A DNA stretch of 58,076 bases, taken from the NCBI GenBank assembly GCA_026397235.1, contig JAPLVG010000014.1, positions 1 through 58,076 on the forward strand. Reading direction: 5' to 3'. Position 1 is the first letter of the stretch; every line of letters starts with the position of its first letter. The notes under the pieces were generated by a model. The model was not told the DNA's origin, did not search any database, and saw only the letters and a list, made by a program, of their open reading frames with translations. The DNA is from Candidatus Berkelbacteria bacterium. GTDB lineage: Bacteria; Patescibacteriota; UBA1384; XYA2-FULL-43-10; CAINNR01. Made by a program: the position numbers and the translations under genes. Of the stretch, positions 18,016-19,361 are shown piece after piece.

Positions 18016-18073
18016 ATAGGGATAATATATCACATTTCATTCCAAAAGCAATCATGGTCTCTAGACGGGGCAC

Positions 18074-18108
18074 TTGACTACTACTACTACTACTACTACT
18101 ACTACTAT
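18074..18108 (+). promoter_or_regulatory. putative promoter with a 23-nt (ACT)10 spacer (predicted OFF state)
   Basis: TTGACT 18074-18079, best -10 TACTAT 18103-18108; the spacer consists of ACT repeats only. Confidence 0.45.
18077..18106 (+). repeat. (ACT)10 microsatellite
   Basis: Ten perfect units; confirmed by the 10 consecutive Tyr codons in track ORF 17845..18123. Confidence 0.97.
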
Positions 18109-18175
18109 GAGATTAGAAACTAAAAATAATTAACTAATATCTTGGCTTTAGTTCAAGATAAAATTTGGAGGTAAA

Positions 18176-18523
18176 ATGGGAGTTGAGCAAGGCGGACCAA
18201 GCGAAGAAGATTTGAGAGTTAGAATAGAAGCAGGAGAGCCGGAGGGAAGAACGGACGATGTTGATTTGGCACACGATCGGGCATTAAAATCAGACCCGTA
18301 TAGAACAGATGCAAAACATTTGCGAGCGCAAGAACAAGCGTTTGTTGATGCGAAAGTGACGGATGACGCCGAAGGTCAGATTTTTAGGGAAAGTACTGCA
18401 AGATTTAACCAAGGTGAAATGCGAAAAGCTCGTGTAGTTGGGGATAAAGCTCTTCGTGCCGAAACTGCAGCAGATATGATTGAAAATGGTGCGCTAGATG
18501 AAAAACCAGCCGAAAAAGAATAG
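18176..18523 (+). CDS. small acidic hypothetical protein (115 aa)
   Basis: GGAGG SD. The N-terminus MGVEQGGPSEEDLRVRIEAGEPEGR is paralogous to that of 19835..20077. Confidence 0.5.
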   Translation: MGVEQGGPSEEDLRVRIEAGEPEGRTDDVDLAHDRALKSDPYRTDAKHLRAQEQAFVDAKVTDDAEGQIFRESTARFNQGEMRKARVVGDKALRAETAADMIENGALDEKPAEKE

Positions 18524-18604
18524 TAGTATAAATATACTATAGCTAAAACATTTTTATAGAAAAGTCGTCTCGAGAAGAGGCCGATTTTTCTACCTAGAAT
18601 GATT

Positions 18605-18632
18605 AAAGGCCGCGCAACTGCGCGGCCTTTTT
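18605..18632 (+). terminator. rho-independent terminator between convergent genes
   Basis: GGCCGCGC-AACT-GCGCGGCC followed by T5. Confidence 0.6.
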
Positions 18633-18655
18633 GTGGTATTACTTCACTGGCTTAG

Positions 18656-19069
18656 CTATTCCAGCTGGTTGAGGTCGAAGCCGACAGCCTTGAGTGCTGC
18701 GGTCAGTGTCGTGTGTGTCGTGTCGTCGCCCGAGACTCGGTAGACGTTGAACTTCCTCGGTGTACAGGCATGACCAGGAGAATTGTAGCGGCTGATGACA
18801 CGGTTGTCGCCACCATTCATCCGGATGCTGCGCTCCTTGTAATAGCTGAATTCCTTCACCATCATCTTGGCGTCGGCAATGATCCGCTCGTCGGTCATCT
18901 CATCGCCATTGGTGTAGCCGATCGCGCCGGCGTCACGCAACTTCGTCATGGACTCGATGATCTGCTCTTCCGTTTGCGTATGCGGAATCACTGCAGGATT
19001 ACCATCGTCGTCCATCGAGACGGACTGGGCGAATCGTGGGCAAAGCGAACTCATGCGCGGACTTTTCAT
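18656..19069 (-). CDS. hypothetical protein, G+C-rich ORFan inside the element
   Basis: AAGGAA SD 8 nt upstream of the ATG. Clearly higher G+C than its flanks. No family recognised. Confidence 0.5.
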   Translation of the reverse strand: MKSPRMSSLCPRFAQSVSMDDDGNPAVIPHTQTEEQIIESMTKLRDAGAIGYTNGDEMTDERIIADAKMMVKEFSYYKERSIRMNGGDNRVISRYNSPGHACTPRKFNVYRVSGDDTTHTTLTAALKAVGFDLNQLE

Positions 19070-19266
19070 GCTGAACGTTCCTTTCAGAGAGGTACAGCTT
19101 TTATATCACAAATGCTATAAGTTGTCCATCATATTCCGATGTTAACTGCAAGATTACTAGAGTACAGAGCCCTGAGATTTCGGCCACTTCGAGGGCTTTT
19201 TTTATTGGCTATTCCCATAGAATATACTAACGCAAAGAAAATCCCTCGTGACATTTTTTGGGGCAC

Positions 19267-19295
19267 TTGACTACTACTACTACTACTACTACTAT
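19267..19295 (+). promoter_or_regulatory. putative promoter with a 17-nt (ACT)8 spacer (predicted ON state)
   Basis: TTGACT 19267-19272, TACTAT 19290-19295, spacer exactly 17 nt. Confidence 0.5.
19270..19293 (+). repeat. (ACT)8 microsatellite
   Basis: Eight perfect units, in a ~105-nt duplicate (19260-19361) of 18067-18175. Confidence 0.95.
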
Positions 19296-19361
19296 GAGAT
19301 TAGAAACTAAAATAATTAACTAATATCTTGGCTTTAGTTCAAGATAAAATTTGGAGGTATT

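Follow-up and report, generated by a model that had tools for sequence, protein, structure and literature searches.

Phase variation by changes in repeat tracts is a textbook phenomenon in host-adapted pathogens, e.g. Haemophilus, Neisseria, Campylobacter, and the mycoplasmas. The hifA/hifB fimbrial promoters of Haemophilus influenzae, reportedly described by van Ham et al. in 1993 (Cell 73:1187; cited in PMC11868660), carry a (TA)n tract between the -35 and the -10 element. Here we analyze two promoter-like modules that have an (ACT)n tract in the same position and reside in a 5.5-kb integrated element of a bacterium of the Candidate Phyla Radiation (CPR)/Patescibacteria. The window, i.e. the whole stretch of DNA that was analyzed, comprises 58,076 nt of a Candidatus Berkelbacteria genome (contig JAPLVG010000014.1). 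As at hif, the repeat fills the core-promoter spacer, the unit number sets the distance between -35 and -10, and changes are ascribed to slipped-strand mispairing. At hif, transcription occurs only at near-optimal spacing, and the same is predicted here. The dinucleotide of hif leads to 2-bp steps and a graded output (off, high, or low), whereas the ACT promoter changes in 3-bp steps, the neighbors of a 17-nt spacer being 14 and 20 nt, both outside the working range; in addition, its repeat contributes to both hexamers. Furthermore, hif consists of two overlapping divergent promoters for surface fimbriae of a pathogen and has been verified experimentally, whereas the ACT promoter belongs to an uncultivated CPR host and is predicted from sequence alone.

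Other described promoter repeats are homopolymers, i.e. the poly-C tract of opc and the poly-A tract of Mycoplasma hyorhinis vlp. The porA promoter of Neisseria meningitidis contains a poly-G tract (PMC3639595). In all three cases, as predicted for the ACT promoter, a repeat within the promoter alters expression via the spacing, but the repeats are mononucleotides with 1-bp steps and a graded output, and the regulated genes encode surface antigens of pathogens. At nadA of N. meningitidis, the number of units in a (TAAA)n tract near the promoter changes the output (PMC2791445). Unlike the ACT tract, it lies upstream of the core promoter and shifts distal elements and the operators of the repressor NadR, not the distance between -35 and -10.

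A trinucleotide tract is found at the vlhA (pMGA) genes of Mycoplasma gallisepticum. There, (GAA)n is placed about 40 nt before the transcription start, and a gene is reported to be active only at 12 GAA units, by a mechanism that is still undescribed (PMC6258824). The two systems share several features: a trinucleotide repeat is present at the promoter of each family member, the conserved flanks are independent of the unit number, an exact count matters (12 units in vlhA, a predicted 8 units here), and the unit number varies between orthologues and strains in both systems. The vlhA tract is situated outside of the -35/-10 spacer, whereas the ACT tract is the spacer and overlaps both hexamers, and because of this the mechanism proposed for the ACT promoter follows from its geometry. 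Moreover, vlhA is a large family of surface lipoproteins, in contrast to the one to three small, cytoplasmic-looking acidic proteins per genome found here. A preliminary description of the window had known of no account of a trinucleotide spacer. A trinucleotide switch associated with a promoter is known from vlhA, although its tract is not in the spacer (PMC6258824). Full-text literature searches yielded no report of simple-sequence-repeat phase variation in CPR/Patescibacteria; the one CPR paper found to mention the term concerns a coding 9-mer repeat (PMC6851277).

The two modules lie on the plus strand, copy 1 at 18067-18175 (GGGGCAC ... GGAGGTAAA) in front of ORF1 (ORF, open reading frame), and copy 2 at 19260-19361 in front of ORF2 and ORF3. 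Copy 1 reads GGGGCAC-TTG(ACT)10-ATGAGATTAG and copy 2 reads GGGGCAC-TTG(ACT)8-ATGAGATTAG. From GGGGCAC (18067/19260) through the GGAGGTA before the start codons, i.e. over about 105 nt, they are identical except for the unit number and one A run in the leader, which is A5 at 18122-18126 in copy 1 and A4 at 19309-19312 in copy 2. In copy 1, the -35-like hexamer TTGACT (18074-18079), whose last three bases are the first ACT unit, is followed by the (ACT)10 microsatellite (18077-18106) and by the -10-like hexamer TACTAT (18103-18108), which consists of the last repeat unit plus AT. In copy 2, the corresponding elements are TTGACT (19267-19272; found by sequence reading and by a promoter scan), (ACT)8 (19270-19293), and TACTAT (19290-19295). 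The spacer length is 3n-7 nt, with n being the number of ACT units, and thus 23 nt in copy 1 and 17 nt in copy 2. Tandem Repeats Finder reported 10.3 and 8.3 copies, respectively, with 100% matches each. TACTAT has both critical positions of a -10 hexamer (A at position 2, T at position 6), while the internal TACTAC lacks the final T. Both predicted 5′-untranslated regions (5′-UTRs) contain an inverted repeat ATCTTG-N9-CAAGAT (18139-18159 and 19325-19345) and a Shine-Dalgarno motif GGAGG (18167-18171 and 19353-19357), and the modules are preceded by unique anchor sequences, i.e. CTCTAGACGGGGCAC for copy 1 and GACATTTTTTGGGGCAC for copy 2. The layout, the unit numbers and spacer lengths, and the A5/A4 difference had been given in the preliminary description; the layout proved to be exact to the base, the leader difference reappeared when the modules were compared, and the geometry supports the view that the unit number sets the spacer, with 8 units yielding 17 nt. 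A regex scan of the window revealed that these are its only pure trinucleotide tracts of at least 5 units. Their occurrence is far beyond chance, and since the two copies are related by duplication, they count as a single event.

The ACT tract is situated between recognizable -35 and -10 hexamers, 60-70 nt upstream of the start codons, which predicts that it is part of the promoter of the downstream gene. Sites of the type TTGAC[AT]-16/18-TAnnnT are found directly upstream of several further genes of the window (1749, 13253, 47646, 55491, and, on the minus strand, 54780). In addition, a divergent pair consists of TTGACA-18-TATACT for the recombinase operon of the element and TTGACA-18-TAAATT for its Replic_Relax gene; the former is conserved in L008, a diverged copy of the element (loci and proteins of the comparison are designated by L and P numbers). 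TTGACT is a frequent -35 variant in this window.

For sigma-70 promoters, spacers of 16-18 nt are functional and 17 nt is optimal. In the mechanism that we propose, the module would be a sigma-70-type promoter in which the ACT microsatellite fills the gap between the -35 element (TTG+ACT) and the -10 element (T+ACT+AT). The repeat would supply bases to both hexamers, and gain or loss of units by slipped-strand mispairing would alter the spacer length alone. Eight units, with the optimal 17 nt, are predicted to be ON, and in this element they would drive ORF2-ORF3; 7, 9, or 10 units, with 14, 20, and 23 nt, are predicted to be OFF, the last case applying to ORF1. With n≥9, the promoter would be at most weakly active via an internal TTGACT-17-TACTAC pseudo-promoter that lacks the final T. 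Because 17 nt is optimal and single-unit slips result in 14 or 20 nt, activity is predicted for n=8 alone. Natively, the module would drive a small family of acidic proteins with a helical hairpin, which is mostly encoded on serine-recombinase elements of Berkelbacteria-like CPR bacteria, and the module would have been duplicated in this element in front of a second transcription unit.

The comparison with related loci provides the main evidence. The block ACTTGACT(ACT)nATG was found upstream of family members at eight further loci in Berkelbacteria/CPR assemblies, 70-105 nt before the start codon, and in every lineage with enough upstream sequence ACTTGACT is followed by ACT units and TACTATG. 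In an alignment of ten upstream regions, ACTTG plus the first ACTAC is invariant in 10/10, TACTATG is conserved in 9/10, and nine of the ten regions keep the ACTTGACT(ACT)nATG block, whereas conservation is lacking further upstream and over most of the leader. The hexamer assignment of the preliminary description is thereby strengthened, as ACTTGACT and TACTATG are (nearly) invariant in nine of ten diverged, homologous upstream regions. Homology, whether between the two copies or among lineages, sets in 2-7 nt upstream of TTGACT, the position at which a promoter cassette would start. L008, which was retrieved by a pattern scan of metagenomes of the Joint Genome Institute (JGI), has 84% identity to the element in the Replic_Relax gene and 81% in a 104-amino acid (aa) ORF; it contains a single module with n=10 in front of an ORF1-like gene, and the 120 nt upstream of copy 2 are homologous to the region upstream of this single promoter.

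The preliminary description had proposed looking for the same leader with other unit numbers in related genomes, and 4 to 10 units were found. In addition to the two copies of the window, ten units (23 nt) are present in front of P0003 in three assemblies (L008/L094/L095), eight (17 nt) in front of P0008 in L104, nine (20 nt) in front of P0008 in L105, seven (14 nt) in front of P0010 in L106, five (8 nt) in front of P0004 in L096, a Berkelbacteria metagenome-assembled genome (MAG) from NCBI, and four (5 nt) in front of P0018 in L109. The tract in front of P0002 is interrupted, (ACT)6-AGT-ACT, i.e. eight units with 17 nt, and is the same in three assemblies (L089/L090/L091); it is fixed at exactly 17 nt and is stabilized by the point interruption. 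In front of P0007 (L097-L103) the tract is degenerate, GGCACTTGACTACGACTATTAAGACTATT, and a spacer length is not applicable.

L104 (SRR29782965) and L105 (SRR17648133), which stem from different samples, encode the same protein, P0008. Their 2,118 aligned nt contain 0 mismatches and one 3-nt gap, which is an ACT unit. As this unit is the sole difference, the ACT tract changes faster than any other site in these 2 kb. The two tracts, with 8 and 9 units, are spanned by single 31-mers, and because they are shorter than the k-mer of the assembler, each length is backed by reads. Two otherwise identical populations thus differ in the unit number (n=8 versus n=9), and such heterogeneity between populations is one of the observations on which the preliminary description had made its proposal depend. 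For the window's own element, Logan contigs (k=31) break where both module copies share k-mers, so that L001-L005 and L092-L093 reveal only "9 or more units at copy 1" together with A4 in the ORF1 leader and are not usable as evidence of heterogeneity. In L001 (43-46; run ERR15302197), A4 instead of the A5 of the window (18122-18126) is the sole difference in 1,210 nt. The A run may be a second slippage-prone site of the module or an artefact of the k=31 assembly path.

Taken together, we regard it as fairly probable that the module is a slipped-strand, spacer-length switch, i.e. a trinucleotide form of a well-known mechanism, carried as mobile-element cargo in CPR bacteria. The anatomy, the conserved hexamers, and the differences in tract length between lineages and between two otherwise identical populations are observed, whereas promoter activity, the ON/OFF assignment, and reversible adaptive switching within a population are inferred. 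Several observations weigh against this switch. The spacing rules are those established for sigma-70 and are carried over to CPR RNA polymerase. A promoter consensus scan flagged copy 2 as promoter-like (TTGACT-17-TACTAT, 9/12), but promoter-like sites are no commoner in the region than in shuffled sequences (10 versus 9.3 ± 3.7), and therefore a consensus match by itself proves nothing; the weight comes from the conservation across lineages. L008, L094, and L095 share 6.3 kb at 100% identity, the tract with n=10 included, and hence at the consensus level the L008-type tract is stable and "OFF" across samples. That n=10 recurs in two diverged elements may be mildly coincidental or may point to a second functional state. 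The tracts with n=4 and n=5, with spacers of 5 and 8 nt, are unworkable with these hexamers and too short to slip often, and in the P0007 lineage (L097-L103) the tract is degenerate. Finally, 17-nt spacing is present in three of the nine tract-bearing promoters, which is not significantly above a free length distribution.

Part of these observations would also be expected if the promoter were real but the microsatellite neutral or decaying, so that ordinary slippage inactivates a dispensable accessory gene and most copies are dead promoters on the way to loss. This is a serious rival, although we consider it rather unlikely. Most lineages deviate from 17 nt, the tracts with n=4 and n=5 and the degenerate version of L097 resemble end states of decay, n=10 is fixed in three identical assemblies, and the ORF1 family is small and non-essential. 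Yet the tracts are pure at 7-10 units in four diverged lineages despite diverging flanks, which is typical of active slipping, and the downstream ORFs are intact and have strong Shine-Dalgarno motifs in every lineage, including the "OFF" ones. Decay also does not lead one to expect that the sole interrupted and stabilized tract is at exactly 17 nt, or that a one-unit change is the only difference in 2.1 kb, which implies a mutation rate far above background. The tolerance of spacings from 5 to 23 nt with intact downstream genes would be accounted for differently if the blocks CACTTGACT and TACTATG(A/T)A(G/A)GA were not a -35/-10 pair and the tract were a variable linker, the real promoter being elsewhere or not of the sigma-70 type. 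The blocks could then bind a regulator, mark the boundary of a cassette or a site of recombination, or represent one promoter element that acts with another partner. Adjacent regulators are indeed frequent (HTH_3 in the window; PaaX_M-like in L096, L097, and L109), and the sequence that follows TACTAT (GAGATTAG or GTAAGATAG) shows more conservation than an initial transcribed region would be expected to have. However, both blocks match hexamers used elsewhere in this genome well, and the lineages with short tracts have no alternative -10 element at 16-18 nt from TTGACT. Neighboring regulators vary by lineage or are absent (L008, L104), so that there is no common binding protein, the candidate operators of the HTH regulator (TATCC-N6-GGATA, see below) lie elsewhere, and the blocks lack the palindrome expected of an attachment (att) site of a serine recombinase. 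We therefore judge both the linker and these non-promoter roles to be improbable. The alternative -10 hexamers TATGAG, TATGTA, and TAAGAT were considered and rejected, as none is conserved in both leader subtypes and none provides the short-tract lineages with 16-18 nt.

A further explanation concerns translation. TTG, the ACT run, and the following ATG share a frame, so that the module could encode a leader peptide with a run of threonines (M-T(n)-M-R-L-E-T-K..., from TTG-(ACT)n-ATG), and ribosomes that stall at these codons would control the gene; copy 1 reads MT10MRLETKNN*, and both in the window and in L008 a GGGG precedes TTG by 3 nt. In L096, L104/L105, L106, and L109, however, the G-rich stretch is absent, and there is no conserved Shine-Dalgarno motif before TTG. 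In L089, L096, L106, and L109, the peptide would end right after the ATG; in the window it would end after 8-9 codons, and in L008 it would run into the main ORF. The leader is not followed by a terminator/antiterminator pair, its fold is no better than that of shuffled sequences, no Rfam leader matches at the module, the downstream genes are unrelated to threonine, and a trinucleotide change merely adds or removes one threonine. Such a peptide is thus highly improbable, and ribosome-mediated attenuation of the thr/his/phe type was rejected, as there is no conserved ribosome binding site, stop position, or attenuator and the frame relative to the main ORF is inconsistent. Rfam at E≤1 detected nothing at either promoter module; the Leu_leader and Phe_leader hits at 18554-18647 are below the threshold and correspond to the terminator hairpins of ORF1. 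The conserved 5′-UTR hairpin of the preliminary description fared no better, since the fold has z-scores of only -0.03 to -0.9 relative to shuffled sequences, is confined to closer relatives, and has stems without covariation. ATCTTG-N9-CAAGAT is present in the window, L008, L104/L105, and L108 and absent from L089, L096, and L106; it could be a weak RNA hairpin or, equally, a protein-binding site.

ORF1 (18176-18523, plus strand) encodes a protein of 115 aa and is the founding member of the MGVEQGGPSEEDL..GEPEGR family. ORF3 (19835-20077, plus strand; 80 aa) is the second member, and ORF2 (19362-19781, plus strand; 139 aa) has no family assignment; a 91% identical relative of ORF2 (L108) has the same type of leader. 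The shared N-terminus of ORF1 and ORF3 and the acidic nature of the products had been recognized in the preliminary description and recur here, with isoelectric points (pI) of 4.7, 5.3, and 4.4 for ORF1, ORF2, and ORF3, respectively. Its designation of these genes as "ORFans" was not borne out. Profile searches with ORF1, ORF3, and their relatives identified a small but real family of 23 clusters at E≤1e-3 among 1.84 billion representatives, with a conserved N-terminus MGVEQGGPSEEDLKIR.GEPEGR..D.D.AH and variable charged C-termini. For ORF1-ORF3, searches with Pfam, PHROGs, and PADLOC yielded no significant match. In the AlphaFold2 model of ORF1 (pLDDT 68), the conserved N-terminus is disordered, and two long helices form a hairpin. 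The best Foldseek matches in the PDB are EsxA/WXG100 hairpins with non-significant E values of about 0.3, and the likeness of the model is in shape only. Both in the window and in L008, the genes of the family are part of serine-recombinase elements. In L104/L105, the gene is flanked by a gene for an ATPase similar to type IV coupling proteins (T4CP)/HerA and by a recombinase gene, in L096, L097, and L109 it adjoins PaaX_M-like regulators, and in L089 it lies between dnaJ and rsmH. Scanning 80 recombinase-related genome loci revealed no ACT or similar tracts. The ACT promoter accompanies the ORF1 family, not the recombinase.

CPR organisms are uncultivated, have tiny genomes with few regulators, and live attached to other cells, and for these reasons cheap stochastic switches would be a plausible substitute for regulation. 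If true, the switch would add to the known promoter-spacer repeats, which are mono- and dinucleotides, a trinucleotide whose bases form part of both hexamers, and it would thereby be strictly binary. The hypothesis can be counted in reads, i.e. as the unit number at a defined site, with the geometric prediction that only 8 units are ON, and the prediction can be checked in existing metagenomes and metatranscriptomes without cultivation. Should the tracts prove to be stable within populations, the finding would shrink to an unusual but ordinary polymorphic promoter. A broader view, which we put forward tentatively and hold to be less probable than the switch itself, is that the module is a portable exact-count cassette (ON at 8 units only) of CPR/Patescibacteria mobile elements, the first case of simple-sequence-repeat phase variation in the radiation and the first with a trinucleotide as the spacer of a core promoter. 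The proteins under its stochastic control, helical hairpins of acidic nature that resemble WXG100 in shape only, would have a role in the relationship between element and host or between symbiont and host. Together with the (GA)n tracts in reverse-transcriptase genes described below, the cassette would indicate that contingency loci are a general strategy of these ultra-small bacteria.

The surroundings of the modules agree with the integrated element that the preliminary description had proposed; they comprise a serine recombinase, Replic_Relax, and HTH_3 genes between two tRNA genes in chromosomal DNA. The window has 41.8% GC and contains dnaE, gltX, dnaX, glycosyltransferase, and PIG-L genes, of which dnaE, gltX, and dnaX lie outside of the element. 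The element is located between tRNA-Gln (17629-17702) and tRNA-Glu (23183-23259), both on the minus strand. An HTH_3 (Cro/CI-type) regulator gene (17800-18015, minus strand; PF01381, E = 5e-16) is divergent from promoter copy 1; its start was taken as the ATG at 18015, the listed ORF beginning at a GTG at 18033. A double intrinsic terminator on the plus strand (18555-18635; 18567-18581 in a terminator scan) with -39.1 kcal/mol and z = -5.9 follows ORF1, and a bidirectional terminator (20169-20196) follows both ORF3 and the Replic_Relax-family gene (20221-21003, minus strand), which is the one with 84% identity in L008. ORF3 has its own Shine-Dalgarno motif but no promoter module of its own, and therefore it is probably co-transcribed with ORF2. 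The terminators after ORF1 and ORF3 thus delimit two transcription units, each with its own module. Terminator-like hairpins are present upstream of copy 1 on the plus strand (17439-17455 and 17504-17524), so that especially ORF1 should rely on the module in front of it; upstream of copy 2 there is a weak hairpin. Further downstream, the 104-aa ORF and a large serine recombinase of 525 aa (21347-23240, plus strand) follow, and the 3′-end overlaps tRNA-Glu. The recombinase has Resolvase, Recombinase, and Zn_ribbon_recom domains, and relatives with up to 72% identity were found in Patescibacteria MAGs (Berkelbacteria, Saccharibacteria, and others), 153 stretches in all. In most of these stretches the 104-aa ORF is present as well, often along with Replic_Relax and HTH genes.

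Between the two promoter copies lies an ORF of 137 aa (18656-19069, minus strand) with 55.8% GC and no family match. It looks like a recently acquired foreign gene and is absent from the L008-type element; it co-occurs with ORF1 on the Logan contigs L001/L092/L093. Imperfect palindromes TATCC-N6-GGATA are found at 18009-18024, over the start of the HTH_3 gene, and at 21294-21309 and 21316-21331, over the TTGACA-18-TATACT promoter of the operon of the 104-aa ORF and the recombinase. They are kept in L008 (about 6480-6530), and none is present within the ACT promoter modules. The Cro/CI-type repressor of the element probably uses the palindromes as its operators. A candidate promoter of the HTH gene, TTGCTT-16-TATATT (18022-18049, minus strand), lies back to back with promoter copy 1 and ends about 6 nt before the ATG, and the repressor mRNA may thus be leaderless, like that of lambda cI from PRM. 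The 20-nt 3′-end of tRNA-Gln is present as an exact direct repeat (17462-17481 and 17628-17647, 166 nt apart), which looks like an att-remnant scar from another integration/excision event.

Viral contigs yielded no relatives of the ORF1 family in a protein-family scan and no match in a search with ACTTG(ACT)5. A 22-nt segment of the leader, ACTATGAGATTAGAAACTAAAA, exactly matches the 3′-end of a phage gene (...GTMRLETKTGGRR*) in the IMG/VR contigs L006 (5924-5945) and L007 (901-922). Chance would not be expected to produce a match of this length in the two contigs, which are related viral sequences, but the surroundings are otherwise dissimilar.

Different repeats were observed near homologues of other genes of the element. 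In Patescibacteria MAGs, reverse-transcriptase genes with the IGNLTSQLFAN motif of diversity-generating retroelement (DGR) type, about 1 kb upstream of recombinase homologues, contain (GA)n tracts with 10-27 units and a GC hairpin behind each tract (L013 1658-1677; L020 5660-5687; L066 2572-2625; L053 4681-4712, minus strand; further tracts in L016 4638-4675, L042 5912-5935, and L050 1693-1714). The reverse transcriptase is read through in one frame in L013 with (GA)10, and it is split into two frames in L020 with (GA)14 and L066 with (GA)27. This pattern is either a signature of translational phase variation, or it reflects pseudogenes or assembly slippage. An (AGTG)14 tract is located near a Replic_Relax homologue in a Gottesmanbacteria MAG (L034 4668-4723).

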